From: Vermamoeba vermiformis
Taxonomy: Eukaryota
DNA length: 64,000 nt
Reading direction: 5' to 3'
Assembly: GCA_045837725.1 (NCBI GenBank)
Contig: JBEWZL010000062.1
Location: forward strand, 1-64,000
Shown: in pieces, positions 1-35,335 of the stretch
How positions within the stretch are numbered: the stretch's first letter is position 1
Layout of the letters: each line of letters begins with the position of its first letter
The notes under the pieces: model-generated
The model's input: the letters and a program-made list of their open reading frames with translations, nothing else
Told to the model about the DNA's origin: nothing
Databases searched by the model: none
Made by a program: the position numbers and the translations under genes

Positions 1-2500
1 GACCACCAATGGTCGTTTATTATTATCCAATGCTGTTTCGTTGATTTCTCGCGTTGACCAGTCCTCTCACTGCTCGCTCATGGGCTCGCCAACTCGATGG
101 CGCGATCGGATGCGTGGGACGCGTCCAAATAATACGTAAGTAATTTTTTAAATATATTAGATATTAGCACGACGCAATGAATGCGTCGATTTCATATTTA
201 AAATTATGCTTTAAGTTAATAAATTTTCAAATTACGGATCGAGCTTAGTCCTCGATTTAATTTCAAATTTACGTTATAAATATTACCTTATTAACGTATT
301 AACGTTTATTATGACAGGGATTGGGTGATTGAATTCTCACGAAACGAATCTGATCGCTCGCTGCTTCGATCCGCGAAGTACACGTTGAAAACCACTGGTA
401 AGTACTACGATATAATTTAATTAATGATTTAAAATCATTCTAACAGTTCGCAGTCAGGAAAAAAGGAGAAGAAGAGAGATCTAGATCGCGCACTTCGCGC
501 GATAATTACTATGGCTTGTCTCGTCAGTTTCCCGCAGTAAGTGTTGAAATGCGTAGACGATATCAATTACTAACACAATATAGGCTGGTAATGGATAATA
601 GCGCGTTTAATTAGCGGATGAACCGCTTCGATCCAGCGGACTCTGGATCCGTAAAATACGCTTGATTGGCTCAATGGCTATTGCAGGTAAGTAAAACGCG
701 TTCTATCTATTACTATAATCGACAAGAAACTCATGATTTGATTTTAGGAGTTGATTTATATAGTTTTTAGAGATCAGCGCGCGATCCGATCCCGCGTACC
801 AACGCAATCTACCTCGGCCCCAAGACCGCAGAACAATTCGTAAGTTTAAATAGAGCTAGAAGGTACTTAATACTAACATTTTATTTTATTATAGAGGCTG
901 TAATCGCTCACGGTGAGGATCGGAGCGATGATTAAGTGTGCGATCCGGGAGAGTCACTTTGGCGAGTTGTGCGTAGAAATTTTAACAGTAGCATTCGGCT
1001 GTGGTAAGCAATATAATTGATAGTCAATAGCGCGTTCTAATACATATTATGTAGGTTCTCGTTAAATGGTGCGAGCTGAATCCATCGGAGGAAAATTACC
1101 CAGCGGCACCGAGTAGAGCAAAAGGTAATTAATTGTAACAATATTAATAATTTCTAATACATACAGCAGCGCATAAATTCGACACGGTATTAAAACCGTT
1201 ACTTCGGGCTCAAAAAGAGATCGCGCCCAATTTCATAGACAACACAACACCAAGTAAGTTAACGCATCGCTGCAAGCACTTTATACTAACATATTTTATT
1301 ATTACTTAGGCTTTAATCGCTTACAACGGGATCCGATCACAGGAAATTTACTGCTTGGTTGATTAAGTAAGCAATGTTATAATTAATATTTTTATTTAGT
1401 AATATATAACATAATTAAAGTTGATATTTGAATTGAATTATTGTTAAAGTTTTAAAAATTTTAAAATTACGGATCGAGCTTCGTGCTCGTGTTAAATTTA
1501 AATTACTGTTTATCTTATATTTAATACAATATACTAACGTTTATTTAATAGGTTATTTGGGCGTCAGTGCAAAGACGCTAGTTCTAGATCGAGCGCGAAG
1601 TCGGATCGCTCGATGACCGATAGTGAATCAAGGGTAAGTTGCTTAGATCTTTTATCTTATTATTATTTAATATTTTAACTAACCTTATTTAGGTTTTCCA
1701 AATTCACGGTGACGGATCTCGAACGCGATCTTCTCGCGTTAACAGATCCATTACATTGACAGTACAAGACCCGTAAGTACGCTTAGGGTAAGAAAATGGT
1801 CAATACTAACACCTTATATTAGTAGATATAACGAAGGCGGTTATGGAAGAGAAATTACGAGATCGAGATCCAACGCGTCTCGATCAGCTAAACTTTCAAT
1901 ACGAGGCATCGATTGTCTTATCGGTAAGTGATCCCCCTTATATATTAATATTTTAAATAATTGATGCTAATTTTACGCCTAGGAGATGCCACGGAGCTGG
2001 GGCCAGAGATCGCGAACTCAACCTCTCGATCTCGCAGAAGTTCAATGACGCATCGATTGCGCCAAAAGTAAGTATAACGCTTTATTTTAACATATTATCA
2101 CTTACTTATACGTTTTTATTTACAGGTAAGACCAGGTTAGCTATTTTACGGGATCCGAACACGCGATCTGACGGAGCAATTTCATGAAAATTGTAACAAG
2201 TGATAGACCCGTAAGTAATATTAAACGATTATACTATATATTGACTAATGTAATCTTACAGTAGATCGGCTAAAGTAGCTAAAATGGCGAAGAAATGCGA
2301 TCCGCAACTAGAGCGGATTCGCGAACTAACTATCAGCGCAGTGGTAAATAGGTAAGCAAATTTACGATTTAGTGATCAATATAATCAATTACTAACCCGT
2401 TGATATTGGTAGAGTTATTGTGTGATTGCTTTAACGCTGATCCCCACGGGATCTGCGATGAAAGCATGCACGCACAAATTCTAATGATAGTAAAGAGTTA
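1..2500 (+). repeat. Non-coding array of ~140-bp exon-intron-like modules (plus-strand copy)
   Basis: GTAAG(T)/GTAAT donors at 136, 398, 537, 687, 840, 1004, 1125, 1254, 1367, 1634, 1773, 1924, 2068, 2211 and 2352. Each is followed by an AT-rich tract ending in YAG, most with a CTAAC/CTAAT branch point. The intervening 60-110 bp segments are rich in CpG and GATC. The ORF track has nothing here. Confidence 0.8.
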
Positions 2501-2519
2501 AGTAAATAAATACAAATCA

Positions 2520-4560
2520 ATTTTACTTACTTTCGACGCGATCGATGCGCGTCACTAACTTCTGAGAGATCCGGGTGTAGCAACGATCTCCGGCCCCAGC
2601 TCCGTGTTATACCCTAGACGTAAAATTAGTATCAATTAACTAGTATATTACTATATAAGAGGTTTTACTTACCTTTAGAGCAATCGATGCTCTACATATT
2701 AATTTTCAAGGATCGAGATGCGTCAGATCTCGATCTCGTTAACTTTTCTAAGGTCTTGTTTTTTCCGTTTCTATTTATATAAGGCGTTAGTATTACTTGA
2801 CTTCTAACGCTGAGAATACTTACAGGGTCATTGTCCATCAAGTATCGAAATTGTTGACACGGGAAGATCGAGTCCGAGATCCATCACGGTGAATTTGTTA
2901 AACCTAAATAAAACGCATAAGAATATTAAATAATAATTAAATAAAAGGTTTTAACTACTTACTCTTTATCCACTATTGGTCATCGAGCGATCTACTTCGT
3001 GCTCGATCTAGAAGTAGCGTCTTCGTACTGACGCTCAAATAACCTATTAAATAATCATTAACAGAGTGTTTTAGTAATAAAATAAACACTAATTTAAATT
3101 TTACGCGAGCACGAAGCTCGATCCAATTCTATCTAATTTTAAAAATTTAACTTGATTTTTAAATTAATAATCGACGCATTGGTACGATTATTTTACTATT
3201 ATTGAATAAATTTAAAGACTTACCAATTTATTTCCAGGGCCTAGGCGGATTCGATCTCGCCATCAAGTTGCCAAACCAACGAGCGAGCAGTGGCGATGGT
3301 CCCAGCAGCGGGACACGAACGGAAAGGGCCAGTATACCATGAAACGACCATTGGTGGTCGGGATCTCGCGAATCGAAAGTAACTGGAACTTTCGATCGCG
3401 CTAAAAATTCGTAACAATAATCTAAATAAAAAATTACACCTTAGTAAGTTGTACTTGATATACTTTTATCGATATTAATTAAAAATCCGGATAAAATCCG
3501 AGCACTTGGCTCGATCCGGGTCAGACTAATTTTGCTTTGAAAATTTAAAAATTGAAATTACGATAAAATAATGTTGTAAATGGTGGAAGGATAATTATAA
3601 AAATCTTACCTTAAATTATCTCGGTCACTGAACCGAGATTTGATCGCGTTTTGTTCGCGATCTTAAAGCCGCGCTGGAATGACGCTGAATGTCGTTTGGC
3701 GCGTGTGTGTTAATAATAAACGACCAATCTAAATAACCAAATCGACCCTTGTGGCCGACCTGTTGCGAATCTTGGATTCGCGCTGTCAATCCTCAAAATA
3801 ACTCGCACTGAACGGCTGTTGTGGCCGTGGCGCGTAACTATCTGCTGTTAATAAGCAAAAATAAATAAATAAATCGACCCTTGTGGTCGTTCTGTTGAAT
3901 TACTGACGCGAAATAGCCCGTGCGCCATTTTCGCATCAGCTCTGATCCGAAATAACTCGCGCTGTAACGGCTCTTGGGCCGTGGCGCGTTACTGTCATCT
4001 GAATAATCATCTAAATTAAAATATTGAACAATCTGCACTTACAATATGACCGTTGTGGTCGATCTGTCGCGGTTTTAGAATAACTGACGCGTACGATCTT
4101 GACGGACTTGTGTAATCGCCGTAGAAACTCCTAATAATGATTGTTAATAATATAATTATGCAATAATTTAACGCGAGTAACGAGAATCTCGTTAATCTCG
4201 CTGATTTATAATTCGATTGAGGTTTAAATCCGACCTCGAACTCAATCAATAATTAATTTGTCATTACTACGTACCTTTAATCATGTTCTTGCTGTTTTTT
4301 TCTTATAAATCTTCCTCGATCCGTCATTTCAAGTTGACGGATCGGCGCGACGATTTCTTGCTTTCTCCACCACCGAGAATTTTGGCATTAATTTCGCGCG
4401 TTGTTTCTCGGCGGTCTGAATCCAAAATAATTAATAAAAATTAATTGAGAGGTCTGGATCAAAATTTAATGATCCAGGGGCCCGTTGGCTCCCTCGGATC
4501 CCCGCGCTATTTATCGCTTACCTTCTCGTATTGACAAAAAAATTAATATGGACCTATTAG
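2520..4560 (-). repeat. Inverted (minus-strand) copy of the exon-intron module array
   Basis: ACTTAC (reverse donors) end at 2530, 2672, 2823, 2962 and 3223, and CTTAC at 3609. 3342-3359 is the exact reverse complement of 1-18. 2530-3140 is a diverged reverse complement of ~1460-2070 (e.g. GGATCGAGCTTCGTGCTCG at 1471 vs CGAGCACGAAGCTCGATCC at ~3106). Confidence 0.8.
3735..4095. repeat. Degenerate direct repeats (about 2.5 units) inside the minus copy
   Basis: AAATCGACCCTTGTGG...AATAACTCGC...AACGGCT...GGCCGTGGCGCGT occurs at ~3740 and ~3871, with a partial third unit at ~4048. Confidence 0.7.
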
Positions 4561-4879
4561 CTCATTGTTTGAGCTATTGTTTCGCGTCAAGGCGAAATTG
4601 AACACTGTTCGTTCAAGACAGTACTGTTCAATTTCGTTCGATTTTTTGCCATTAAATTCGGGGCGCCAAATTTTCCGGTTTTCCAGTCATTACGCGCCCC
4701 CCAGTGCTCCCCTAACCCTAAAAAAAGAGACTTTTTAGCCCTACTTTAGCTCTAAACCCTAACTTGATTTTCTGGATTACAAGGATAGCTACAGAGTCAA
4801 GACTAGTATCATTTTAAAGCCCTTTCAAAATCCTACTCAACCATGCATCAAACAACTGGATTGGTTAAAAGCATCTTAA

Positions 4880-5300
4880 CTTTGGATCTGCTTAGCTTCA
4901 GTACCCAGGTGCAAACTCTGATCAAGGGATCTGACTGATGTCACTTTAACTTAAATCTGTTATTTTACTGATATTAGCTATGATTCATTCGTTTAACATT
5001 GATTGCAAACTCAAATACCAACTTTTCATCTTGACTCTTGCTGCTAACTCAGAACAAGGTATTGTATCAGGTTGAGTTCAACTCAGATCTGTTATTTTCT
5101 TTATATTCACTATGATTTATTGATTTATTACTGATTTTGAGGTCAAATCCCAACTTTGACACTTGACCATTGGTGCTGATTCATACCAAGGGAGTGCTTC
5201 AAGTGAAATCTAACTCAGATGTGTTATTCTCTTCATATTCACTATGATTCATTTATTAAACATTGATTCCCAGATTAAATACCAAATTTGGTCCTTGAAT
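4880..5300. repeat. Degenerate 132-bp tandem repeat, 3 copies
   Basis: AACT(T/C)A(A/G)AT(C/G)TGTTATT...ATATT(AG/CA)CTATGATT(C/T)ATT recurs with TGTTATT anchors at 4958, 5090 and 5222 (exact 132-bp period). Confidence 0.75.
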
Positions 5301-5867
5301 CTGTCTCCAGGATATCCAATACTTCCTATTACCTATAGCCAACTTGACATTTCCACTCGAAAGCATCAGATACACTGTTTATATCATGTTTTGATATGTT
5401 CCTAATTGATTTGACAGGAATTGAATACATTTTCAAAATTGCTTCATGGCTGAAGTGGGACTCAAATGAGCCAAGTAAACATCAAGTGCCAGAACAAGGC
5501 CATACTATTATGATAAATATACATAAATATAATTGCATAACAACATGAAAGAGATTTGTCAATATGATATCAGGGCTCTAACATCTGGATGCTGCCTGCA
5601 CGCGTCAAAGGCTGCAAGCATGCAATCATTGAATAAATAGCATGTATCAATAAGAAGTCATATGATAATGCTAAAGTTTAAGTATGAGGTGATTCTGAAA
5701 TGGACAACCTTGCACTAAGAATTGTTTATAGTCACAGCACATAATGCAAACAACGAATATTTGCTAGACATTATTTAATATTAGGAGGAAGAAACAAATA
5801 TCTGAAAAAAACCCTAATCTATTTATTTATTATAAAAAAGAAACAAAAAATACTAGTCTAACACATA

Positions 5868-8800
5868 TTAAATAAGTTCTTCAACTTGATCATCAAATTC
5901 CTTGGCAAGTCTGTTGACGTGGATCAAGTAATCATCCTTTAAAGTCAGCTTCTTGGGTGTTTTGGCATAAAAAAAAGGTGTCTTCGAAGCAAGACAACTT
6001 GCATGCACTTTGTGGGGTCCTACTTCCTTCGTGAACTTGTTTGTAATAGTTTGGCAAATATCGCTGGCTAGTGCTTCGCTTTGGTGAGCCAATCGTATAG
6101 CACTGTAAGCAGCAAATTTAGCAACATAGTTAGAACTCTTCCCTGCAACGTCTTGCTTGGACAATTTTGTTGCCTGGATAACACTGGCCTTAAGGAATTT
6201 GCCGAACAGAGGATGAGCAAGCATTGATGATTTGCTCAACGGACTTCCTTCACCAGCTTTGGCTTCCAAAATGGCTGCTGATTCCAGCAGCAATTTGCGT
6301 AACTGCGAACGTTGGGATGCGTTGCTCGAAAGGTAGCTTACGGTAGAGATTGCTGAGGCGTTGCTTCCGGAAGAGCTAGACCAACTAGATGAAGGAGATG
6401 ACGCAGGGTTCAGCAAGGATAAAGGATCCTTTTCTAAAGGAAACAATCCATATTGAGATTTTGCAAAGCATCCAAAAGTACAACGCCAGAATGAAACAAA
6501 AGGAACGATGGCAAACCACTGTTTGGAGATGTGGTTCAAAAGCCCGTGCTTGGAGGACAACGTCTGGCATGAAGGATGACAATACTTGGAGTTGACGTAA
6601 AGCTTAATCAATTTCAGAGCAGGAACCCATATATCTCTTAGTTGGTGAGCATACGAATCTTGAAGCACAGTCTTGTTGCAAAACAACTTGTCGACAAGTT
6701 CGTCCAAAAGCACAGGTTTTTTCTTGTTGGGAGAAACAGGATCCAAAGGCAAGAAAAGAGGTCCAGGCTTGCCCAATAACACTGCTTTGACTTCGTTCAA
6801 ACTGAGAGTTTTGTCGGAGTGGTCTGACTTGGCTTGAGGAGGAACGTGGACGTCTTCCTCACCATCGGGTTCCAGTTCGTTTTCTTCTTCGTCGCTTTGA
6901 TCCACGAGCAGGGCAAGATTCAAAGGAACAAAGGGACTTGCCTGGTCGTTGCCGCCAGGGACCCTCTGAGATGAAGCTTGGGATGGAGCGAGACCCTTGC
7001 GTGCAAGTTCGACGACGTCCACGCCGGATCTTACCAGGCAGCAGTATCCGAACAAAACCAGGAAATAGTAAACGACGGAGGAAGCGTCGTGAGTTCCGCT
7101 GGTTAGGATAGTGCCAAACTCCAAGAGAAGGGATAGTTCGTTTTTGATCCGGTTGGTTGAAGGATGTTTTTTGCCTTGAAACCATAATTGAGGAATTCTA
7201 TCCATGAAATTGCTTTCACTCATCCATTTGCTAACCTTGATCCGATGACAGTCCGAGCACACCGTGAGTATTTCCTTGTAGGTGACGAATGGATCGGTGT
7301 TGAAGAGAAGTAAAGGAAGAGCGGGCCACTGGAAAGTGAGCAGAGACTGGTGTATATCCAAAGACTTCATCACTTTAGGACAAACTTTGTGTTTTTTGCC
7401 AGTTAACCAATAAAAAGGAGAAAACTCCAAGAAATTGAGCAGCTCTCCCTCATGCACGAAAAGAAACCCTCGAACCTGTCAAAAATACACCTCAGCACCT
7501 TTTTGACGTCTACGAGGGCACTTACTTTGGCAAACTGCTTGATTCTTTGAGCAACGTGGTCATAAACCGTCGCCAGTGCCGACAGACAATCCAATGCCGT
7601 TTCCAAGTTGCAGGTGGTTTGACAAACGTTGCCTTCTGAAAGCAGGTCGAGGAAACAGTTGCCGATCAACAGAGCGGAGCTATTGTACAGGGTCTTCAAG
7701 CAGTGCAGTCTGTCGTCGTTTCGGTGATTTCTGTTGAACTTCAAGTAGAACGTAGGTTCGAAACGAAGAGGGGAGTCGGCAATGGCGGGAAGACTGTTCA
7801 CCAAGGCGATGAATTTGGATAGAGGGCCTGCTTGATCTTCGTCGACACTCCTGGTTCCGAGCAACTTGAATAGCCACAAAAGAGCTGGCAAAGAGTGCCA
7901 CCATTCCGGATCCCGGGGATTGCAGGCGGTCGAAGAAGTTTTGAACTGGTAAATGAAAGTCGAATAAAATTGACTGGTTTCCAAGTCGAATTCAACTGCA
8001 CAGTCTGTCGCCAATTTTTTGATCGACTCCCAAGTGAAGAGCATGCATTCAGGTGGATGGCCTTCAGCTTGGACCGCAGCAAGTTCAGTGGTTCCCAACA
8101 GATAGTAAACGTTCTTCTTTCGCCCTTTTCGAAACATTGAACGCAGCTCTTTGTTCAGGAAGTCGGTTCGCCAAAACCCTGCCTTTGCCTTTTCGCAGTC
8201 AGCAGGGTACTCGAACACAAAGCCCGTCGACCAAAACATGCAATGGATTCCTTCCAAATCAAAGTTTTGCATGCTGTTACCCAACGTTCCGTCGAAAAAG
8301 TCTTCGGCTTGCAACGGGCTGCTCTTTTGCCCTAACTTTATCGTCATCGTCAGTGTTTGCAACCAATTGAGGCTTTGAGATGCGTGGTACTGCAAGCAAC
8401 GGACAAACTCGGGGAAATCAGCTCGCTTTACTTTTACCACGGCTTCAGAGGGCCAGGGATAGTCTTCGGGGGGGACTTCGGCGCTGCGACCGTTTCTTCG
8501 CATTTGGGGAAAGATGTCCAAAACAAAGTCTTTTCATCGTCGTCTTCGCAGGACACGAATATGGGCCACGACATCCAGCGCATGAAGCAGACGAACCTGC
8601 CTCGCCCGTTCGAGAAAAAGTCGCTCGATTTGCAGTTGGCTCCCGAGCCGTACTTGGATTTGGATGTGTTGAAGTCCAACACGTGCTGTCCTACAAGCAA
8701 AAAAGATTTGAGCCTGAATTTAAAACAAAACTACCAATTACCTGCAGCAAATTTGGCAATGTGCTTTGGACTAGTGCAAACCATAAAATCCTCATCATTT

Positions 8801-8875
8801 GGGGCAGGGTTTTTAATAAAACTAAGCATACAACCAGGCAAAGACACAATGCAAAGTCCATCAATGTCCTGACCT
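5868..8875 (-). pseudogene. Large orphan protein gene, apparently broken by two frameshifts (~8520, ~7430)
   Basis: Consecutive overlapping minus ORFs 8434-8700, 7403-8521 (372 aa) and 5868-7457 (529 aa) read as one polypeptide across single-base shifts. There are splice-like signals at ~8741 and ~8875. No domain was recognised. Confidence 0.55.
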
Positions 8876-9048
8876 GAATTTATTGGATGATAGTTGGTTC
8901 CAGGCTGATAGTTTTTAATGTCGCAAATAAAAATGTTTTCCTTATAACTTTTTTTGTTTAAGTATATTTAACCCCCCCCCATGTTTTCATTGGAAATAAA
9001 TGAAAATGGTTTTTTGCTTTATTTTTTTAGTTTGTTTTATTTTACACA

Positions 9049-9357
9049 ATGGATTACAACAACAGTGACTATTTCAACACTCGTAATCATGCTGTTGATG
9101 ATTCGATGGATTGTAATCAAAATAATAATGATAATTTAGTTGCCCCCCAAGAAGAACCAGCCCAAGAAATTGAAAGTCATGAAGAGGAAATCAGTGACAT
9201 ATGCTGGGATCAATTTAATTCATTTGTTTTGGATCAAGCAAAAGATCACCCTGACCTAATTAATCAAATGGTACAAAGAAAATTGAAGCATGTGCCATTT
9301 GAAGAAGAACATGTCAACCCTACCTCTGTCAAGTTAACAACAGGCATAGGATTATAG
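9049..9357 (+). CDS. Small acidic hypothetical protein
   Basis: 102-aa ATG-initiated ORF after a T-rich leader, with a plausible protein-like composition. Acidic codons continue in another frame to ~9430. Confidence 0.35.
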   Translation: MDYNNSDYFNTRNHAVDDSMDCNQNNNDNLVAPQEEPAQEIESHEEEISDICWDQFNSFVLDQAKDHPDLINQMVQRKLKHVPFEEEHVNPTSVKLTTGIGL

Positions 9358-9500
9358 ATGATTGGGGGAGACAAAGGCGGTGATGAAAATGAAGCTGAAG
9401 AAGAGGCAAACAAATCAAAAGAAATGATTTGAGTTGCTTGCAATGACTCTGGACTTACCTATTAAAATAGAAAAATAATTAGCAAATGTTTACAACTTTT

Positions 9501-12500
9501 ATCCCGAGCGAGACTCGCCAGGGATGACAATTCCATCCCAAGCGAGTCTCGTCATGGATAAAAATACTTTACTTACTTTTTTTTTGGAGTTTGAAAGTCA
9601 TCGTCATCGTCATCATTGTTGTTGTTGTTGTTATTATTGTTGTTCTCAGGCTCAACCTCCTCTTCAACAATTCCTGCAACTTTTCTCTTCTTTCTTTTGG
9701 GTTGCGTTCTCTTCTTTGTCTTCTTCGACTTGGTCTTTTTAGTCTTTTCGCCATCACCTTCGTTTTCTTCATCTTCTTCAATCTCCTCTTCCTCTTGCTC
9801 TTCTTCTTCTTCTTCTTCTTCTTCGTCTTCTTCTTCTTCCTCTTCTCTTTTTCTTTTTTGACCCTTCTTTGGCGTTTTGGCTTCCTTCTCCTTGTAAAAG
9901 TCAGCTTCAAGCTCCGCCCAAGTTTTGTGAACCAAGTCGAATTCATGAGTGTCTTGGTAAAAGATATCATTCTTCTTCATCTCTTTGTACCATTCAAGCA
10001 TTTCCTGTAATAATTGTAAGTGAAAAGGGTAATTTCATACAATTCCATCCCGAGCGAGTCTCGCCTGGGATGACTTACAGGACTCTTGGGCTCTTTGGCA
10101 TCTGCAAGCTTGTCGATGTTGTATTTACGAACAAGTTCATGTTCCCATTCAAACAACAATGTGTACAATTCGTTGGATCTGATTTTCTCTATTTGCTCAT
10201 CAACCCAAGAATTGATCGTCGATTCAGTGATTGCAGCTGTGACGTAGTTTTGCAACCAGGTAAAATTGGCAAGCTTGCCTCTGGTGGGAGAAGTTGGCGG
10301 GAGAAGTTTGAAACTGCTCTTGTAGTCATGTTCAACCAGACGAAGCACGCGTTCTTTCAAATAGTTTGCCGAAAACAAGGAAACCAAAGGCACAACTCTA
10401 CCCATTGGCAAGATTTTATCCACGTCAGTAGTCGTATCAAGGAACAGGCACCTTCTTTTGTTTTGCAAGAAGGCCTGTCCGGCAAAAGCAATGGCATTGT
10501 TGCTCATGGTTCCCATGATGATGGCACAGCTTTTACCAGATAATTCGACGAACTGCCCCAAAGATGCCATAAACTCGGTCAACAAATTGTCTTCGTCAGG
10601 AATACTCTCAGACTTGACTGTTCTCTGGATCAAGGGATTCTTGTTGGCAAAGAAGCATTGATGTTCATACGAGAAACCGACATTGGGAAGTAGGGTCTCG
10701 TAACCAATATTCCGAAGTTTGATCAGCTTGGTGTGCATGGTATGCCACTGCAGAACGACAAATAAACCAGTTCCACCAGTAGGCTTATCTGACGTCATGT
10801 GATAGCCTTTGTAAAGCATTACGGGGAAGATGAACATCTTCTTTGCAATACCCGTAGTTTCAATGATGTCCGAAAGTGTTTCTTTCAAAATGTTGCAATT
10901 TGATACAATTATAATCACAACTAAGTAAATGTTTATCCCTGGCGAGTCTCGCTCGGGATGAATTTGATTAATATTTGCTTGAAATTGTAATATTTTGAGT
11001 ACAAAAGAAGTGAAGTGTTATCCCTGGCGAGTCTCGCTCGGGATGAATTTTGAATATAATACTTACCGTTTCAAAGTCACCCAAAGTCGAAACTCCTTTT
11101 TCTTTTAAAACTTCAAGGGCTTTGTTTGCAACCGTTTGTCCTCTTGTGGTCTGTAGGACACGCGTAACGGAGGACATTTGTTGCAAGTCTTTGGGACCTC
11201 CACTGACTGATGCAAGGATGTCGTTGATAATCATCCAACTTGCATACTGAAGATCGGGGGAGCGAAGCTTAGACTGTCGGAGGTTGCCACCAGTGATGCT
11301 GAGAATAGGAAGCAAGTTGCCAACTTGAGCCTGGTTTAGCCAATAATCTTGAGCTTTAAGCACAAGAGGGGTGTTGTATTGCGCATTCTCCTTCCTTATT
11401 TCGGCAATGGTAGGGACAACCGTCTCCTTCAAGAATTTAATGACAAACTCTCGGCCTTTGAGGTAGCGACACAAAGCACGGAAACTACTGGGGCTGAGTT
11501 TGTTTACCGCAGCGTATGCCATGGCAATGTGACGTCTTCTCATGGACATGCCACTCAGTTCAGAATAGTGATGAACGGAAAGGGGTGATCGAGTTTCTTG
11601 ATCCTTCAAGTAAGTGTACCAAAGAACCCAAACAAAAGTAGGCCAACCGGGAACAACTTGGTAAGCACCTCGAAGTTTGTTGTGGTTACCAACCAAGGCT
11701 GTTGCAAAAACAGTGTTTCGGGTAGTCCGTTTTTCATCTTCTGTTTCTTTTTCCTCTTCTTGTGCATCTTTCTTCTTGCCTTTTGTTTTTGGCTTCAGGC
11801 TAACATCTACGGTGTCAATAACCTCCTTCAACTTCTTGGCAGTCGTTCCTCGCGTCATCTCCATTATTTGCGGATGGTACTTGGCAATGATCTGAACTTC
11901 TGCATCAACAGGGCTCAGCTTCTTTTCGCCAAACAGAAGATCCAACCAGGCCTCTCTCATTTGTTTTAAGAGATCTACAAGCGTGATTTGGGCCATGCTC
12001 TTTTGGACTTCGTTATACCATAGAGCAATGACCCTCTTCTCTTCTTCAGTCAATCCAACAAACAAGATCAAGCTCATTGTTGGATTCTTAATCTTCTTCT
12101 GCTGAACCAAGATCGCAGCAGCATGCAGTCTGTGCTGGCCATCCAAAGTCTCGACCAAATCATTGAAGGCTGGCTTGTGAGCCATTGGCTTGCCTGAGAG
12201 ATGAGACAGAAAGTAATCTTTTGTGTTGTCCCATTGAGTTTGCGTGATGCAGCCAACCATTGGTGTTTGGTTCCACCATTCCGAACCAATGCTCTTCACT
12301 TTCTCTTGCACGACATTCTGCTTAAGGTCACGCATTATATTTTTTGAGGCCTTCTTCATGACAGTGGATGGGTATGTTGTCAAAGTTTCCAGCTCTCTTA
12401 TCGGAGTTGAACAATTGGACTCCGTGGGCTTGGACTTTCTGCAAGTAGGATTTGTCTTTGATGTTCTTGGCAAGTTCATCGACGACCTCCTTCGTCAGCC

Positions 12501-14705
12501 CTGCAGCCGCTCTTGCTTCGGCCTCTGCGTCGCTGATTTGTTTATCCATCAGCTTCTTTGATTGCTTCTGCAACAGATTCGCTTCGAAGTCTTCCTGAGC
12601 CTTTGCTCCTTTTTCCGTCTTGGCCACAGCTAACAAAGCCTCTTCATCCTCCAACCGCAACAAAGATCGGACGAACTTTTCGTCCTTAGCTGTTGGTTCA
12701 GCAACCTACAAAGTTAACGTCAGTACCTTGTATGCATTGTTTCATCCCTGACGAGACTCGCTCGGGATTACTTTCCAACATTGTGACTTTACATTATATC
12801 TTTGTTTTCTTTGAAAAGAAATGAGTATCTCATCCCAGGCGAGTCTCGCTCGGGATGAATTCATTATTGTTTTGGTTTATGTAATATTAAATTTGTAAAT
12901 TATTTGTTGCATCCCAGGCGAGTCTCGCTCGGGACAGTTTCAATTAAATTTACCTTAATTTCTACAATTGTTGGCTTCTTTTTAGCCCCAACCACTGGAA
13001 ATTCTTTAGGATTACCAAAGGGCTCATCGTCGTCAATGACAACTGTGGGTTGCTGCACCACTCCTTGGTTCTCCTGGCTTTCAACAACCGGATTCTGCTC
13101 AGGTTGTTCGTCGACGACCATATCCGTCATCTCAATACATTCCTGCAGCTCGTTAATCGCCTGTTGTTGTGATTCTGTGTCCACTCGCCCAAAATCCGTG
13201 ACCTTTCCGGCTTCAACTGCTTGTATGTACAGGTTAACCCATTCGGGTAATGGAAAGCTTCCGGCCCATTCAAAAACATCAGCTGCTTTCTCGACAAGCT
13301 TCCATTCAGCAATGATGGGGTTGATTTTTTCCAAACCCCAAAAAGAGTTGACGTTGATGAAAATCCGGTCCTTCTCTTTAAAGCTGCCATCTATGCATGC
13401 AAACAGATAGCACATGTTGCTGAACTTCGCCGGGCGACAGATGACCAGTTCGTGCTTTTCCATAATGTCGCTCTCCACTTTTTCACCACTAACGCCAGAA
13501 CCAACGTTACGCAAAAGCTTCCCGTGAAAGACCAGTCGATCGGCTGCAGCGTTTGGCTCAATATACCAAGGACCAGAAGTATGGTAGTTGGGCTTGTATT
13601 GAGCAGTCGCCCAGCTGTCCTTTTTCTGAAACAGTTTCTGCTCCACGGCGATTCGTATGTTTTGAACCAGCGGATTTCGGGGGCTGAACAAACCAGCGTC
13701 TTCGGATACAGGCTCCTTTTCTTCCGTTGGCTTCTCCGTATTAACGTTCGTGGATCTTCTACCGGCTTCCTCGGACAAATCGGCAACAGGATTTGATCTA
13801 CCTCTGCTAATGCACGTTAGATTACCATTCATGATTTATTTTCATCCCGAGCGAGTCTCGCCTGGGATGACTAACTGAAAGTTAAGTTTATTCACTTTAG
13901 GATGAATGATTATTTGAATATCATCCTTAACGAGTCTCGCTCGGGATGAATTCTTTAAAAAAAATCTATGGTAAACATAATTCAATTTCAAAAATAGAGA
14001 TTGTTTAATCCATCCCAGGCGAGTCTCGCTCGGGATGACTTCGGAAATAAATTTCAATAAAACTTTACTTACCGTGAGCTTATCCCGGGGGTCCTTGCTG
14101 TAGTTGTCGAGGAGCTTCGGGTTTGGCGACCAGAGGGGGTACCTTTGGAATTATTGCTCATTTTTGTTATAAAAAAAAAAACAAAGTTACGGTGTTGAGT
14201 TGTGGTGGTGTGTGTGGTAAGTGAAAGTAAAATGAAAAAAAAACCGAACGGAAATTTTATAGATTTTCCTCCCTTGCTAATTTTGGGAGGCAATTTCAAA
14301 TTCTGGTGTAAAATTACGGTTTAATCACCCTTTACCTTTCAATTTCCATCGCGAGCGAGTCTCGCTTGGGATGAGAGGAGTAGCTGGTTTTTAAGGGTTG
14401 AATGGTTGAAAATTATATTATTATGCACCTTAAGCTAGTGGATTCTATCCCGAGCGAGTCTCGCCAGGGATGGAACTAACAATTTGATCGTCAGGTTATA
14501 GGGTTAATTAATTTCTATCCCAGACGAGTCTCGCTCGGGATGTCTCGCATTATTCTACATGAATACCAAGAAGAGTTAAGGTTCATCCTTAGCGAGTCTC
14601 GCTCGGGATGAAAAAATGTTGAACGAATGACTTATCAGGGGGCTCCGCCCCCTGCACCCCCCTTCTTTTTTTCTTTTCCCATCCTTAGCGAGTCTCTCTC
14701 GGGAT
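9501..14705. repeat. Dispersed 27-bp imperfect palindrome CATCCC(AG)GCGAG-W-CTCGC(TC)GGGATG, 16 copies
   Basis: Copies start at ~9501, 9534, 10046, 10935, 11020, 12743, 12831, 12910, 13843, 13922, 14011, 14347, 14447, 14517, 14584 and 14680, in both orientations. None was seen elsewhere in the window. Confidence 0.95.
9573..14161 (-). CDS. Multi-exon ParB/Sulfiredoxin-fold (DGQHR) protein with an acidic/basic tail; one frameshift near 12330-12420
   Basis: Exons 14161-14073, 13797-12954, 12705-11067, ~10920-10079 and 10004-9573. Three junctions are phase-consistent GT-AG; the 11066/10921 junction is not. ParB N-domain motifs: MRDLKQNVVQEKVKSI, ETLDGQHRLHAA (GxxRxxA) and EEEKRVIALWYNEVQ. Confidence 0.7.
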
Positions 14706-14789
14706 CAGTAATTGACCCTCCCGTATTTAATATAGTATCAATGTTTATTAGTGATAGGAATTGTATCCCTAATGCCTAACATCAGTCAT

Positions 14790-15795
14790 TTAGGTCATAT
14801 TAAATATAACACGTTAGTAACCCACCGTGGCTAACTGTACAATTACTCACCAGTACATTGTAATGAATGTAATGGATCTGTTAACGCGAGAAGATCGGGT
14901 TCAAGATCCGTCACCGTGAATCTCTAAAGCAAAAATAAAGCGCATCAGAATATTAAATAACAATAAAATAAATGAATTAAACTACTTACGCTTTACTTGC
15001 TACTGGTCTGCAAGAGATCTATTTCGCACTCGATCTAGAGCTCGCATCTTGGCTCTGACGGTGCAATAACCTATTTGATAAGGAGTAGTATATTGTTTTA
15101 ATTATAAAATAGAGAAATATTCGAATTTTGCGCAAGCACGAAGCTCGATCCGTAATGACAATTTATTTTAAATTATTAGAGCAATTTTAAATTTCAAAAT
15201 GACGCGTTCCCTGCATCTTATTGGTTGTTTTTACTATTAAAATCGAACTTACCAATTATTATGATGCGTCCAACGCATCCGATCTCGCCATCAAGTACTC
15301 TGAGCGTTCCGTGACCGCCATGAGCACCAACCAAAGCATGGCACGAGAGGAATAATATATTCAATAACACTTAACTTCCGTTTGTGGTCGCGATCGCTGG
15401 AAAATAAAGTCAAAAACACTTTCGATCGCAGTCAAAAATACAAATCCAAGTTAAAAGAAAAATTAAGATAAAATATTTATAAAAATGGGTGGATTGTATA
15501 ATTAAAAATAGTACCTGTATTTATTTCGGTCTCCGCACCGAGATTCGCGCATCAAATCTTGATCTTGCATTTTCTTGCGCTGCAACGACACTGGATGTCG
15601 TTTGGCGCGTGTCTATAAATTATCTAAATAAACAAACCAACCCTTGCAGCCGATCTGTCGCAAATCCGAGTTCACACCTGTCATTCTCCTAATAACTCCC
15701 GCTGAACAGCCGTGGCGACTGTGGCGCGTCACTTTCTGCTGTAAATAAACAAAAAAATAACAAATAATGCAACCCTGGTGGTCGATCTGTTCAAG
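14790..15795 (-). repeat. Third, truncated copy of the exon-intron module repeat
   Basis: Colinear with ~2790-3900 (e.g. GCACGAAGCTCGATCC at ~15137 vs ~3109; GATCTCGCCATCAAGT at 15281 vs 3253; TGTCGTTTGGCGCGTGT at ~15596 vs ~3690). Reverse donors are at 14989 and 15252. Confidence 0.85.
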
Positions 15796-17760
15796 TGATT
15801 AACTTAAAACGGTCAGATCTTTGTGCGATTCCCTCCCGCGGGAGCTTGTTTATCAATTTTATTAACAGGGTGAAATTTCAGCCCCTCGAAAGTTCTCCTT
15901 CCTTTTCGCTCCTCCCCGGGGAGATTTTAATCAATTTTATTTCCTCCCGCAGAGCTCTTGCAAGGGAATTTCACAGGAAACAGGTCTGATCTTCCTTGTA
16001 TTGAGTTGCACCTGTCACAACTTGCCGTCAACACCACAACACAGCGCAGAAGAGCCGAGTGCAGTGCCCGTTGTTGCTTGCTGTTGCGCTGCAATTGGCA
16101 CTACTCCCTGCTTGTCTGCGCTCTGCTTTCCCAGGTTTTGCTCGAGATGGCTGTAATGGTAAGATAAGTGTTGATTTTTTATTGAAAGCAGCTTGCATTA
16201 TATCAAATTTAGATTATTTACATTTATTAATGGTGTTAGTTTTGAATTTTTCTGACACCAAGGCTATTTTTCAGATGCGATATTTTTTTTCAGATGCAAA
16301 GCTAAATTTTATTTTTTTCTTGATATTTTACACTTGCAAGCACAAACATTGCTTGCTTTTCGCAACAGGCAGGTGCCACTTGGAACCGACCCCTATTGGA
16401 CTTGCCTTTTTCAAGGGCGGTATCACGTGAAACCTACCCTTGTTGGATAACTCTGCTCTTTCTTTATTACTTTGATATGTTTTTGTTTTTTCAAGTACAA
16501 TTTTATTGCTTATGACATAGTCTTCTTATTCTTCACTACTTTCAAGTTCAGCAATCTGTGAGGAAAAGTTCAACAAAAAATGAGTTTAAGGGCTCTTTAA
16601 ACTCTATAACCTGTGGGTTTTTATAACCCAGAAGCCTACTATAATTCATCAAACAAGAGCTAGCTATTCACCATCACAGCTCAAGTGAAGATCAATCCAA
16701 GATGGATCAACATCTACTCAGCAACACTGGCTCTAACAGAGGGCACAAGATGAGGTCAGCACTGGGAATCTTTTTCCACTTTGTTTGTGACATCATTAAA
16801 CCAGTTGTTGTCAATATTCATCACCTCCTCAACAGTAGAGTTGCAACTGCTTTCCCACAGTGGTACAAAGCAACAGGCAAAAAACCAAGCACCAATGGCA
16901 ACATGATCAAAATGATTCAAATGTTCCTCAAGTATTTACACATAAGTGTAGTTATATCACATTACAGTGTACCTTAATATAACAATTAATTTTAGGGCCT
17001 TGAGCAATTTGCAAACTATCAAAGTTATATTATGGCCATTGGTGATGCTCTGCAAGTACCTGGAGCAAGTAAGCAAATTGCTTTTTTTTCAACAAGATAA
17101 CTGACTTATAGTATAAAATAGAAGCAAAAGACATTGCTAAATCTCAGGCTAACAAAACTGTTGCTGAGAGTATGATGCTGCTCAGTGAATGGTTGAATCA
17201 AAACAAGTTGCTTCAACTCAACCAAGAGCGAAGACTCTGACAGAAGCGGCTCGGCTTCAAATTCATGATCGTTGTTTTCGAGCTCTTCATCATCAAGTTC
17301 CTCCTGCGCACCAAGCCCCTCGTCTTCTTCTTCGTCTTCATCTTCATCTTATTCATCCAAGTCTGCCGCGAGCAAATCTACCAATGTCAACAAGTCTTTC
17401 AACTTACCACTGTCTCTGTTTCGCAAACAGGAGGACTTCAAGGAGGCTCCGGTAGCTGTGGTTGTTATTGACGGTCCAAAGCCACCTGCTAAACCTGTGG
17501 TGCACCATAGCCCTTCTACAAATAAGACCAAGGCTAAACCTGTGCCACTGAAGAAGATCTCCAATCTACTTCCCACCTCTGTCTTTCGTGTTAATCTCTT
17601 CCCCAGTATGCAATGATCTGTGGGAGAGAAGAGAAAGTTGTTGCTATCTCTGTTTATGAAAGAGACAAATAAGAAACCCAAAAATATGTAATGATCAGAC
17701 CTACTTCTTTAATCTTTGATATTTAATATACAAAAACCAATAATAACTAAACTGAAAATA
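15796..17760 (+). mobile_element. Decayed CpG-depleted insertion with a fragmented coding remnant
   Basis: It interrupts the repeat copy at ~15795 and has GC-rich subterminal motifs at 15830-15960. The interrupted ORF 16702-16977 (FPQWYKATGKKPSTNGNMIKMIQMFLKYL) weakly resembles a tyrosine-recombinase core-binding domain. A Ser-rich tail runs to 17616. Confidence 0.35.
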
Positions 17761-21103: not shown

Positions 21104-23835
21104 ATGGAGCGAGACGATCGGAAAAAAACAGAACAATGACTAGAAACTAAAACCAAGCCCCTAAGGTAATTAATAAATTATAATGACAAATCACACTAAA
21201 TCATGTTAAAAAAAACGTATTTTAATTTCATTTAAAGAGAATGATCGGGAATTTTAATTAACCGGATCAAGTTTAGTGATGTACTAATTTGTTTTCTGCT
21301 TAAGGACGCGTCAACGTATAGCAAAACCTTTTGTGAAGATATACAGATGGTTCGTGAGATTCTTCAGTGACCACACGAATTTTTTCCGAATCCATCTTCT
21401 GGTTTTCGCGGTTATGAGCTTAATTGGCGCTGTAGTCATTTGGGCAATCGAGGGAAGAGAGAAAGAGTACATTGATTGCCTAATTTTGTCTGTGACAGCG
21501 TTTTGGTATGTAAATTTTTCCGTTTTTTGTTTTGATCGGATGTACTCCCGTACAAAAAGGAGGACCTCCGGTCTGAAGTTATACACTTACAATTAAAAAT
21601 TATTTATGCTAATGTACTACTTTCTTGACTAGTGTAAATGGTCTCGTTACGCTCGATCTTGCCGGTTTAAAAACAGGAACCAACGTGTTCGTTATCATAT
21701 GGACGATGCTTGGTAGCGGTGTATTAGCAAGGTATCTTTCTTGGATTCTTTTCGATTTGGTTTAATTTTCCGTAGCTAACCGTTTAAATCCAGCATTGCC
21801 CCGCTCATCATTCGCTTATACTACGTAAAGCACTCCATCAAAAAAGACCCTCGTATTTACATTATTCGAAACGGTCGCAAAGTGACAGATCCAGAGCTAG
21901 TGTTAATTGGCAACTCTCGGCTCGAGTACATTGGCACAAAGTTCATGATCTACATCGTGCTCGGCTATTACTTTGGCACTCAGCTCTTTGGTGCTCTCGT
22001 GCTATGGATCTACTTTGGTGCTTCCTCTTGGGCCTACGACCTCGTCAACAGCCAAGGCGTCAATCCCTATTGGTTCGCGTTCTTCGAGCCCATCACCGCT
22101 TTCTGCAACAACGGTCTCTCCTTGGTTAGCAACAGCTTGGTCTCCTTGAAATCTAGCGCTGGCCTGCTCATCATTTTGGCCTTCGAAGTCCTTTGGGGCA
22201 ACACTGCATTCCCGCTCTTCATGCGGCTCATAGTTTGGGTCTGCAGCAAAATCAGACCGAACAATGCCGTGTTCTCGTACTTGTTGCACCATCCCCGTCG
22301 TGTTTTCTCTCACTTGTTCCCGCACTATCAAACTATATGGCTCCTAATCGTAGTGATAGCCACCAATGTCATTCAGTGGGTCTTCTTTCTTGGTCTTGAA
22401 TGGCACGGACCGATTCTGGCCGACTTCACTGACGGCGAAAAGGTTCTCAACGGCTTCTTCCAGTCAATTAGTACGCGTACTGCCGGATTCAACAGCGTAG
22501 ATCTAAGTCTCTCTCATCCTGCAATGAACGTGCTCTACCTCGGCATGATGTATTTGGCCGTCTATCCTGTCACTGCTTTCATTCGTAGCTCCGCTGCTAG
22601 TGAAAAGAAAAAGACGGCGGCAGAGAAAGCCGACAAGAAGAAAAAGAAAAAAGAAACGGACAGCGACATTGAGCTGAGCGTAAGTTCGAACTTAGCACAT
22701 GTTTTCCAAACACGTGTATCTGACGATTTTTTTAAGCCTAGGGACGCGGTTACTTCTGACGGGCGCAAGTTTCATAACGTACACGTCGTTCATCGTTATC
22801 AAAAACGAAACTCTGCAAGAAGTCCGCCACAAGGTCTGCACGTTCACAAGTCCTCGGACTTCTTCAGTGGCTCTACTAAAGAAAAAGATCGGAGTTCATC
22901 GTCAGAGGAAGACGTCTACAAGCCTCCCAGCATCCGTTCCAAGTCCAAAATTGGATATCAAATCCAAACGCTACTTTACCGTGATATCACGTGGGTGTTC
23001 GTGAGCGTGTTCATTATATGCTGTATAGAAGGTACTATTCCGTAGCAATTGGTTGTTCGGTGACTAACACTTACTAGGCGAAAGGATCCGAACTGATCCC
23101 GATTTCACCATCTTCAAAATTCTATTTGAAGTTGTCAGTGCCTACGGTACAGTCGGCTTGAGTCTCGGCTACCCCAACGTCACCACAAGCTTCTGTTCTG
23201 TATGGACGACCGGTTCCAAAGTCATCATTTGCATTGTCATGGTGATGGGTCGTCATCGTGGTTTGCCCGAGTCCATCGATCCCTCAGTGCGATTGCCCTC
23301 GATCCCTGAGCTAGCAATGGCGAAGAGGTCTCAGCATAAGAAACTTAGGGTCACTTTGACGATGCCCCAATCAAATAGCAGTGCGAGCTCCGACAGCGAA
23401 AGCGTTCCTGATCTGAAAGAAGGGAACGAAGGCGATGTCATTATAGATATGCCTGGAAAGCCCAAGTTGGACACAAATAGTGACAGCGAGACTACCACTA
23501 CAAAGGCAAGCAAAGAGCCCATAAGCTCGTCAATGGACTTTACTACGCCAATCGTTAGACGGTTGCGCCGCCACGCTAGTCTTGAATCTATTTCATTGCC
23601 CTCTGCTAAACGAAGGAGCAAAGAAAAAGACCGCGCTAAAGAACCCTTGCCCGTGCCGTTTGAAGTGGAAAAGCGGCTGTCCACGATTAGTTTGGCCTCT
23701 AACCACACGGTCCGATCTGATCTGGGCTTTGACATCGACTTCTTGGAGCAGGACGAAGAATCTTCTAGCGAAGACTTGCAATGGAAACGCCGGGCATACT
23801 CTCTAGACGACGCCGACAGAGTTGAATACAACTAG
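21104..23835 (+). CDS. Trk/HKT family potassium (cation) transporter
   Basis: Pore-loop motifs ITAFCNNGL, FFQSISTRTAGFNSVDL and FEVVSAYGTVGLSLGYP, plus MGRHRGLP and multiple TM segments. The 5' exon is uncertain (in-frame TGA at ~21137). Confidence 0.92.
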
Positions 23836-34800: not shown

Positions 34801-35335
34801 GCCTAAATAAGGAAATATTATTAGCGGGTTACAAATGAGCATAAATTTGCATTAAAGCACGTTATCCCTATTCATTTTTCAAAATTCTTCGTTATTATTA
34901 TCATTATTATATGCATATAATAAATAAAATAGCTAAATTAATCTAAATATTGGGCTAGGAAAACGTACAAAAATTTCCATTGAGAGATCTCATTCTGACT
35001 ATACCCGTCACTCTCCTCGTTTTCTTGTTGCTGTAAGCGCAGCAAATTTTCTTCAGTATCTGCGATGTATCTATTTAACTTTTCTTGCGTAGTCTCATCG
35101 GGCGGGCTGCTTTGGATCGCGATCGGCTTTTCCTAAAAAGTTTTGAATGAAAATCAATTGTGACCTATTTCTCGCTTCGAAATTGTAATGTCGCGATTAA
35201 ATACTATCTCGAATAAATCTTTTTAGATTATTTCTCCTTTCCTGAATTTTTAGCTTTGCTTACCGGCTGATCTTTTTCGCTCGCTTTGCGTGTCGAGGCT
35301 CTAGTTTGTCTAGCGTTATTGTTATTGGCACTCAT
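31857..35335 (-). CDS. Large low-complexity nuclear protein with a C-terminal Myb/SANT domain and a forkhead/H15-like winged helix
   Basis: The charged 655-aa exon 32831-34798 has RS repeats. Myb-like WSPREKLKLIDLVVEQAPSNSNDWE|AIASTLQRSADSVRKKY; winged-helix-like GYANMLLSAFKHLPGYS|GTMDEICDYVEDHF...KWRKAMTNILRRDARF. Confidence 0.7.
33655..33875. repeat. Coding tandem duplication (~111 bp x2)
   Basis: SSSASAKKKSSKSKEKDES(Q/R)DE occurs twice in ORF 32831-34798. Confidence 0.8.

Follow-up and report, generated by a model that had tools for sequence, protein, structure and literature searches.

Why would DNA that encodes no protein keep a dense series of introns in place? The question is raised by positions 1-4560 of the stretch analyzed here, the first 64,000 nucleotides of contig JBEWZL010000062.1 of Vermamoeba vermiformis (the window), in which a first-pass annotation had recognized a noncoding repeat made of short exon-intron modules. 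Our analysis suggests that the repeat is a multi-copy family of spliced noncoding RNA polymerase II genes arranged in tandem units of ~1.25 kb, an interpretation that we hold with slightly better than even confidence; that the introns themselves are genuine is rather more likely. We favor a family of spliced noncoding genes given that its splice grammar is that of the host, its strand is consistent, its intron lengths are fixed, and its splice signals have outlasted the sequence around them. Noncoding RNAs usually shed their exon/intron plan fast. In this family, which is tandem and present in multiple copies, the ~8 introns of each 1.25 kb have retained position, length, and signals while the sequence between them drifted nearly to randomness.

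We counted 24 introns in 1-4560, those of the plus strand being delimited by hand, and within each part their strand was uniform: all 15 introns in 1-2480 lie on the plus strand, and all 9 in 2481-4560 lie on the minus strand. The 15 plus-strand segments claimed by the first-pass annotation were thus borne out, and its count of at least six minus-strand units rises to nine. Copy 1 of the family (1..2480, plus strand), the start of which is cut by the window edge, consists of 16 exon-like blocks and 15 introns, the latter at 136-317, 398-453, 537-583, 687-747, 840-894, 1004-1054, 1125-1166, 1254-1309, 1367-1551, 1634-1692, 1773-1822, 1924-1982, 2068-2125, 2211-2261, and 2352-2412. Copy 2 (2481..4560, minus strand) is convergent with copy 1, and its introns lie at 4521-4416, 4274-4131, 4042-3999, 3609-3422, 3223-3044, 2962-2904, 2823-2771, 2672-2614, and 2530-2481. 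The exon at 1552-1633 has the boundaries that were originally assigned to it, and the intron before it is that at 1367-1551. Blocks rich in GC, CpG, and GATC alternate with donor-branch-acceptor segments where the annotation had placed them, and the period that it gave as ~130-150 bp agrees with the exon-plus-intron modules of copy 1, which measure 112-164 bp (mean, ~143 bp). The modules have diverged too far for Tandem Repeats Finder to detect their ~140-bp period.

All 24 window introns start with GT, and 21 of them with GTAAG[TC]. The donors of copy 1 (n = 15) are GTAAGT in 11 introns, GTAAGC in 3, and GTAATT in 1, and those of copy 2 (n = 9) are GTAAGT in 6 and GTAAGC, GTACGT, and GTAAGA in 1 each. 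Branch sites in copy 1 comprise seven CTAAC, four CTAAT, and three of a weaker form, with none in the remaining intron; those of copy 2 are weaker, being TTAAT or TTAAC in six of nine. A strict triple motif, GTAAG[TC] followed at short spacing by YTAAY and YAG, matched 15 times in 1-4560, whereas 300 dinucleotide shuffles gave 0.6 matches on average and never more than 4, and GTAAG[TC] alone occurred 24 times compared to 4.0 in dinucleotide shuffles. Given that a loose donor-branch-acceptor pattern gave 27 further matches scattered across the remainder of the window, the splice grammar is the host's own. The family shares with U2-type introns a donor of the GTRAGT type, the branch site followed by a YAG acceptor, and a host-like length and grammar. 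On the proposed sense strand, introns have T in excess of A and exons have A in excess of T; this holds for each of the three sets, regardless of the genomic strand on which it lies. Spliced-leader genes were considered as a class and rejected, since the units are diverged and acceptors are present.

The same plan was found in an independent relative. When metagenome contigs were scanned for a 17-base intronic block, at least 119 loci were returned, and among the matches listed a single contig, L101, was a true relative, the other 118 being chance matches. L101 is 2964 bp long, has a GC content of 0.36, and is 67-69% identical to the family along as much as 1.1 kb. Two tandem units lie on one of its strands, each with the order seen in the window (head exon, long intron, E10- to E13-type exons, the numbers being those of copy 1). 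We counted 12 introns in L101, excluding a candidate at the contig end (2890-2953) with the acceptor AAG. All 12 start with GT, 9 have CTAAT or CTAAC as the branch site, and a YAG acceptor closes every one of the 36 introns of the window and L101 combined (24 plus 12). Pattern scans of genome contigs (37 loci) and viral contigs (7 loci) yielded chance matches without similarity to the element.

When the window copies and L101 were compared, the splice signals proved better kept than the surrounding sequence, as had been predicted for a repeat in which splicing matters. Between the window and L101, the identity of short-intron interiors is 0.01-0.12 above a shuffle baseline, which is near saturation, and that of exons is 0.05-0.22 above it. 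Despite this, donors of copy 1 and the two L101 units are identical at 49 of 54 positions (binomial P of 0.00025, with the neutral identity set generously at 0.70). Across the aligned donors of five units, GT was kept in 22 of 22 and the G at +5 in 21 of 22, and changes in the signals stay among equivalents, namely TAG/CAG, CTAAC/CTAAT, and GTAAGT/GTATGT/GTGAGT. In copy 3, a truncated copy elsewhere in the window, one lost acceptor has been substituted by another 8 nt downstream. Intron lengths are similarly constrained. Over the five units, three classes of short intron measure 59/56/59/59/60, 50/47/53/53/52, and 59/61/59/58/58 nt, a fourth short class measures 50-58 nt, and the long class measures 177-194 nt. 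The initial proposal that the splice signals are conserved was thus supported. The exon interiors, however, are not free to vary and contain conserved GATC/CpG palindromic blocks. GATC sites of copy 1 are retained in L101 in 8 of 11 and 7 of 13 cases, whereas the remaining exonic 4-mers are retained at 28% and 18%, so that GATC is kept two to three times as often. Of the two GATC sites that lie in short introns, no copy has kept either. Because donors, lengths, and GATC sites are kept despite near-random short-intron interiors, these sequence comparisons indicate that what selection preserves is the splice grammar, together with short palindromes in the exons, rather than a protein.

The composition of the exons is distinct from that of the introns. 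The blocks between introns are 57-135 nt long in copy 1, and two blocks on the minus strand reach 198 and 389 nt. Copy 1 exons have a GC content of 0.48 and an observed/expected CpG ratio of 1.5, and its introns have a GC content of 0.25; decay of the repeat-induced point mutation type was rejected as an explanation given that the exons are CpG-rich. GATC occurs 31 times in the 1406 nt of copy 1 exons compared to ~7 expected from the remaining window, and 25 times in L101 exons compared to 5.7 expected.

Could these exons be the remains of a multi-exon protein gene, present here as pseudogenes or transposon-captured fragments, with an intact coding master elsewhere? The host-gene architecture would fit such an origin, and so would the head exon, which measures 127-128 nt from its ATG in all four copies and in one L101 unit (unit B) opens a reading frame that, after splicing, runs for 54 amino acids from an ATG in a Kozak-like context. 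This is the longest open reading frame (ORF) from the head-exon ATG, however, and the same frame is closed after 11 codons in copy 1, after 36 in copy 2, and after 15 in the remaining unit of L101, and copy 3 has lost the start-like ATG motif. The claim that the array is noncoding was supported. Copy 1 spliced in silico (1446 nt) has stops in all frames, 3 of its 16 exon-like blocks are by themselves closed in all three frames, no six-frame ORF longer than 78 amino acids was found in 1-4700, and both L101 units, in which an intact frame might have emerged, also lack one after in silico splicing. Exon indels are mostly of 1-2 nt, substitutions show no 3-periodicity, and the conserved blocks are palindromic. 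A protein search with a 74-amino-acid head-exon ORF (targets of 40-130 amino acids) returned one candidate and nothing at an E value of ≤0.001. Open frames, codon periodicity, frame-keeping indels, and protein relatives were thus all lacking, and neutral decay would have erased the splice signals as well. We consider a decayed protein gene quite unlikely.

The modules are organized into larger units of ~1.25 kb. The distance from one long intron to the next is 1231 bp in copy 1 and ~1300 bp in L101; only a pair of units can be seen in either, arranged head to tail as in a macrosatellite-type tandem repeat. In every unit, a head exon with CGACCACCAATGGTCG precedes an ~180-nt intron that contains a small conserved hairpin, and about seven modules of short exons and introns come after it. 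Sub-unit 1a (136..1366, plus strand) comprises a long intron followed by eight short exons and is an old duplicate of sub-unit 1b (1367..2520, plus strand), which comprises the long intron at 1367-1551 followed by exons E10-E16. Global alignment of the two gave 47% identity with exon/intron labels concordant at 90% of aligned sites, an alignment guided in part by the alternation of GC-rich and AT-rich blocks, and an nhmmer profile of the core unit matched 140-723 with an E value of 2.3e-26. The module relationships that had been noticed by eye were reproduced: 1693-1772 and 2126-2210 are 61% identical compared to 49% when shuffled, the modules near 895 and 1310 (865-930 and 1278-1343) are 74% identical compared to 50% when shuffled (each value reached by 0 of 200 shuffles), and 1552-1633 is 86% identical to the reverse of 2963-3043 with a 1-nt indel.

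The window contains three copies of the family, of which copy 1 is a tandem pair, copy 2 is inverted, and copy 3 is truncated. Within copy 2, the segment 2521-3151 repeats 1443-2077 in inverted orientation (76% identity), and 3091-3359 likewise repeats 1-269 (67% identity). The head exon of copy 2 (E1 type, with CGACCACCAATGGTCG; 3224..3421, minus strand) lies between two ~180-nt introns and is located within the most repeated stretch of the family. A long exon-like block (3610..3998, minus strand) is composed of sub-repeats of ~132-172 bp, each with a GACC..GGTC hairpin motif, and includes the direct repeats D2 and D3. Copy 3 (14790..15794, minus strand) is 72-77% identical to copies 1 and 2 and retains a head exon, a long intron (15252-15071), an E10-type exon, an intron (14989-14924), an E11-type exon, and a GTGAGT donor at 14850.

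Further copies were indicated by a DNA run from the same organism, which is possibly the sample behind the window assembly and hence, unlike L101, offers no independent proof of the sequence. Contig depth was 6664 in the bin 3301-3850 compared to ~246 in the unique stretch 5504-8843, and it fell at the edge of the family from 1887 in 4401-4950 to 367 in 4951-5500. Depth over the family was 4-27 times that of the adjacent unique stretch, with its peak over the head at 3301-3850, and the head part was 3-6 times more abundant than the tail. Some DNA contigs skip 203, 230, or 408 bp between sub-repeats or modules. Taken together, the depth and the skipping contigs imply that copies at ≥95% identity exist elsewhere and that module number is variable. 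A non-autonomous mobile element with an intron-rich interior, multiplied by transposition, would account for copies in both orientations 12 kb apart, for the truncation of copy 3, and for the excess of head over tail. The three copies, which do not suffice to fix the ends of an element, showed no terminal inverted repeats or long terminal repeats, no duplicated target sites, and no remnants of a transposase or reverse transcriptase, and the head-to-tail units in the window and in L101 also speak against transposition, which we regard as improbable. A foldback element as the form of the family was rejected given that the L101 units are direct, not inverted.

A small hairpin of the form CGAGC-loop-GCTCG, located inside the ~180-nt intron class (1472..1490, plus strand), is the best-conserved block of the family, with further copies at 237-255 (plus strand) and at 3106-3124, 3499-3517, and 15133-15151 (all minus strand). 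The intronic block is identical at 17 of 17 positions in three window copies and L101 unit B. In an 8-copy alignment the stem of this hairpin is kept, with two G·U-compatible changes, one break, and no double compensatory change. Among the exons, a strong hairpin at the meeting point of the convergent copies 1 and 2 (2413..2480, no strand assigned), which forms the last exon-like block of both, has an RNA fold z-score of -5.97 that was matched by 0 of 200 shuffles. Slightly better folding than that of shuffles was seen in 15 of the 16 copy 1 exons, clearly so only for E11 (z of -3.6) and 2413-2480. By RNAalifold, the E11 hairpin is kept in six homologues, in which 3 of 12 pairs have one compensatory change each, and the head-exon hairpin has no compensatory change.

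The position of the best-conserved block in a long intron raises the possibility of a host gene in which the ~180-nt introns release a small structured RNA and the exons are disposable. The length of 177-194 nt would also fit the layout of intronic small nucleolar RNAs (snoRNAs) in the UHG-like hosts of Neurospora, which likewise have short ORFs only (PMC2780460). Rfam gave no match in the window at the gathering score and, at an E value of ≤1, one weak and irrelevant match in 1-4900 (LOOT, 21.8 bits compared to 46.4 needed) and none in L101. A tRNA search found none, and no box C/D or H/ACA motifs were seen by eye in the copies or L101, so that the mark of a snoRNA host is missing. In addition, 13 of the 15 copy 1 introns measure 42-61 nt and are too short for such an RNA, yet they are conserved, and conserved blocks are present in exons too. 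An intronic payload as the sole product is therefore, in our judgment, unlikely.

Several points weigh against a family of spliced genes. Three RNA runs with the same species label (X8, X9, and X10) were mapped to 1-16500 alongside the DNA run, and they placed 44, 33, and 25 reads, respectively, on these 16.5 kb, with no transcript or junction of the locus seen; ~95% of the placed reads run into unrelated or low-complexity letters. RNA depth was also zero over the large neighboring ORFs at 5868-8533 and 9977-13835, and since these are blank too, the runs lack a positive control and neither support nor oppose expression. The alignment of four X10 reads stops precisely at the final base of an exon, 2531, next to the donor at 2530; beyond this point their letters are unrelated and start differently from the intron. 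We regard these four reads as a hint of splicing that is suggestive only. They derive from a paralogue, given that E13-type sequence from both copy 1 and copy 2 is joined in them. Agreement among their loose parts is only 0.8, and a 15-base piece of the loose part had no meaningful match in the window. No evidence of a promoter, cap, or poly(A) was obtained. The outgroup comparison depends on one contig, L101, among the at least 119 loci. The ~180-nt intron is conserved as well as the exons are, and the multi-copy, inverted, and truncated copies have the look of a selfish repeat as well. Finally, the evidence for RNA structure is weak, so the conserved palindromes could act in DNA as well as in RNA.

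This last point bears on the alternative that the family is a DNA repeat that is never spliced, with GC-rich palindromic binding or methylation sites, AT-rich linkers at approximately nucleosome spacing, and splice-like motifs that were inherited. The mean module of ~143 bp suits this model, as do the self-complementary motifs (GATC and CGCG), which would be appropriate for dimeric DNA binders or symmetric methylation; the weak RNA covariation and the lack of RNA in nearly blank runs also agree with it. What it does not readily explain is that, in 24 cases in the window and 12 in L101, donor, branch, and acceptor follow one another in the correct order, on the correct strand, and at the correct spacing, that the signals vary among functionally equivalent forms only, and that strand polarity flips with the orientation of the copy. 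Furthermore, old duplicates kept their signals after losing similarity, and four RNA reads break at a predicted donor. We consequently view an unspliced DNA repeat as doubtful.

If the family consists of spliced noncoding genes, as we favor, each unit would contain one or two ~180-nt introns with the hairpin, about seven introns of 42-61 nt, and exons of 57-110 nt. The ordinary spliceosome would turn the primary transcript into an RNA made up of recurring GC-rich modules that tend to form hairpins. Its function would probably reside in the GATC/CpG hairpin modules of the exons, and possibly also in the hairpin of the long intron; most likely, a protein or another RNA binds there. The introns may be maintained because this host requires efficient splicing for expression, and the size of the family probably changes through tandem duplication, unequal crossing-over, and segmental duplication, which can also be inverted.

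The first-pass annotation had suggested in addition that splicing may be selected for its own sake, which is compatible with our data. According to this hypothesis, the family is a gene mimic in which selection preserves the splice signals and the GATC/CpG palindromes without any product, and the dense, near-optimal introns, perhaps with gene-like adenine methylation at GATC, would allow the repeat to evade silencing by spliceosome-coupled RNA interference (RNAi) or heterochromatin. We give it a low probability, and it is testable given that Cryptococcus links poor splicing to RNAi against transposons. A centromere-like setting had also been proposed; nothing in the window supports it, and the copies adjoin ordinary intron-bearing genes. 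Degenerate telomere-like repeats at the upstream edge of copy 2 instead raise the possibility of a subtelomeric origin, as for a repeat with a TERRA-like transcript.

That edge of the repeated DNA (4561..4950, minus strand) may be a promoter region. It carries degenerate telomere-type repeats at 4709-4761, beginning with CCCTAACCCTAA (two degenerate CCCTAA units at ~4709-4722) and followed by one CCCTAA at 4757, between the family and a tandem repeat at 4947-5290 (period of 132 bp, 2.6 copies, 74% matches). These units could be an interstitial telomere remnant or a promoter element of the Tbf1/telo-box-like kind. At 14164-14780, copy 3 stands directly upstream of the palindrome-rich 5' region and likely start codon (~14163, minus strand) of its neighbor, and a fragment of the family may therefore sit in that neighbor's promoter.

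The window as a whole is nuclear DNA with short, fungal-type introns and includes a Nup98-96 gene and a TrkH-type potassium transporter, the nearest protein-atlas clusters of which are fungal, a lead only. The TrkH gene (21414-23832) has three introns, placed by alignment to an 81%-identical protein of 702 amino acids (P0001), that measure ~50, 62, and 125 nt and have the donors GTATGT, GTATCT, and GTACTA, branch sites CTAAT/CTAAC, and acceptors TAG/CAG. P0001 is uninterrupted on an environmental contig of 2404 nt; the contig thus looks like spliced RNA, and relatives of this organism may occur in environmental transcript data. Introns at 38.2-38.9 kb have the same grammar as the family. At 38400-38590, an ordinary gene has an ~190-nt intron with the palindrome GACCACGTGGTC. 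This genome seems prone to long introns that contain a GC-rich hairpin, and the ~180-nt family introns conform to that tendency. In 9501-14705, a GC-rich palindrome of 25 nt (of the type ATCCCGAGCGAG.CTCGCTCGGGAT) occurs at 15 places, compared to none expected by chance. Read on the minus strand, most copies lie in introns of a large gene at ~9.4-14.1 kb, often at one to three per intron with ~80-90-nt spacing and sometimes directly after a GTAAGT donor, and the palindrome may represent an introner-like or miniature inverted-repeat transposable element-like intron family. The minus-strand ORFs at 5868-8533 (536 plus 376 amino acids) and 9977-13835 (346 plus 508 plus 311 amino acids), which had zero RNA depth as described above, have no Pfam match; either these are silent genes or the RNA runs are unrepresentative of the strain. 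A 665-amino-acid minus-strand ORF at 32001-34828, with overlapping ORFs on both strands, no Pfam match, and a strong AT skew of -0.36 (32001-34000), may be coding DNA that is of low complexity or rich in repeats.

Should the RNA be both produced and spliced, the family would be a clean natural case for asking why a cell or a selfish repeat maintains splicing without a protein and what role short GATC-bearing hairpin modules play, and it would provide a test system linking intron quality to repeat silencing, a connection known from Cryptococcus. If it is unspliced, the family demonstrates how near a DNA repeat can come to the structure of a gene, which matters for gene prediction. Our literature search found no description of a noncoding multi-exon repeat family with conserved splice sites of this kind, nor of a subtelomeric spliced RNA, which is not proof of absence. 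For a multi-exonic noncoding RNA gene, the intron density, the tandem multi-copy form, and a plan that outlasts sequence similarity are unusual.

Among known systems, long noncoding RNAs in which exon modules have been duplicated in tandem, along with transcripts of macrosatellites (FIRRE, for example), resemble the family in being noncoding and multi-exonic with a repeated module across many exons. They differ from it in that here an entire multi-exon unit of ~1.25 kb repeats, the introns are far denser (~8 per 1.25 kb), and the plan is kept after saturation. The introner-like elements of fungi are reported to exist in hundreds of copies throughout unrelated coding genes (PMC3609843). The ~180-nt introns are like them in being related in sequence, longer than ordinary introns, and equipped with a stable small hairpin. 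Near-identical introns in many unrelated genes were not seen here, however; the core-unit profile matched only family copies in the 64-kb window, and the family introns are confined to the family there, having multiplied with the unit, and the short ones share signals only. In Cryptococcus, SCANR polices transposon transcripts through splicing, and its targets are inefficiently spliced (PMC5851062), a known way for the efficiency of splicing to determine if a repeat is silenced. Our family shares with these targets an intron-bearing repeat and a host with short, fungal-type introns; its near-consensus signals would represent the opposite strategy, and nothing indicates such a pathway in the host. 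The closest known kind is the fungal UHG/GAS5-like noncoding host genes, represented in Neurospora by clusters I-V, snoRNA hosts that are multi-intronic with canonical splice sites and short ORFs only (PMC2780460). The family differs from these hosts in that no snoRNA or Rfam member was detected in it, its introns are mostly 42-61 nt, its exons carry palindromes, and it is multi-copy and tandem; it is like them in its many introns, its short ORFs, and the conserved intronic sequence of its ~180-nt class.

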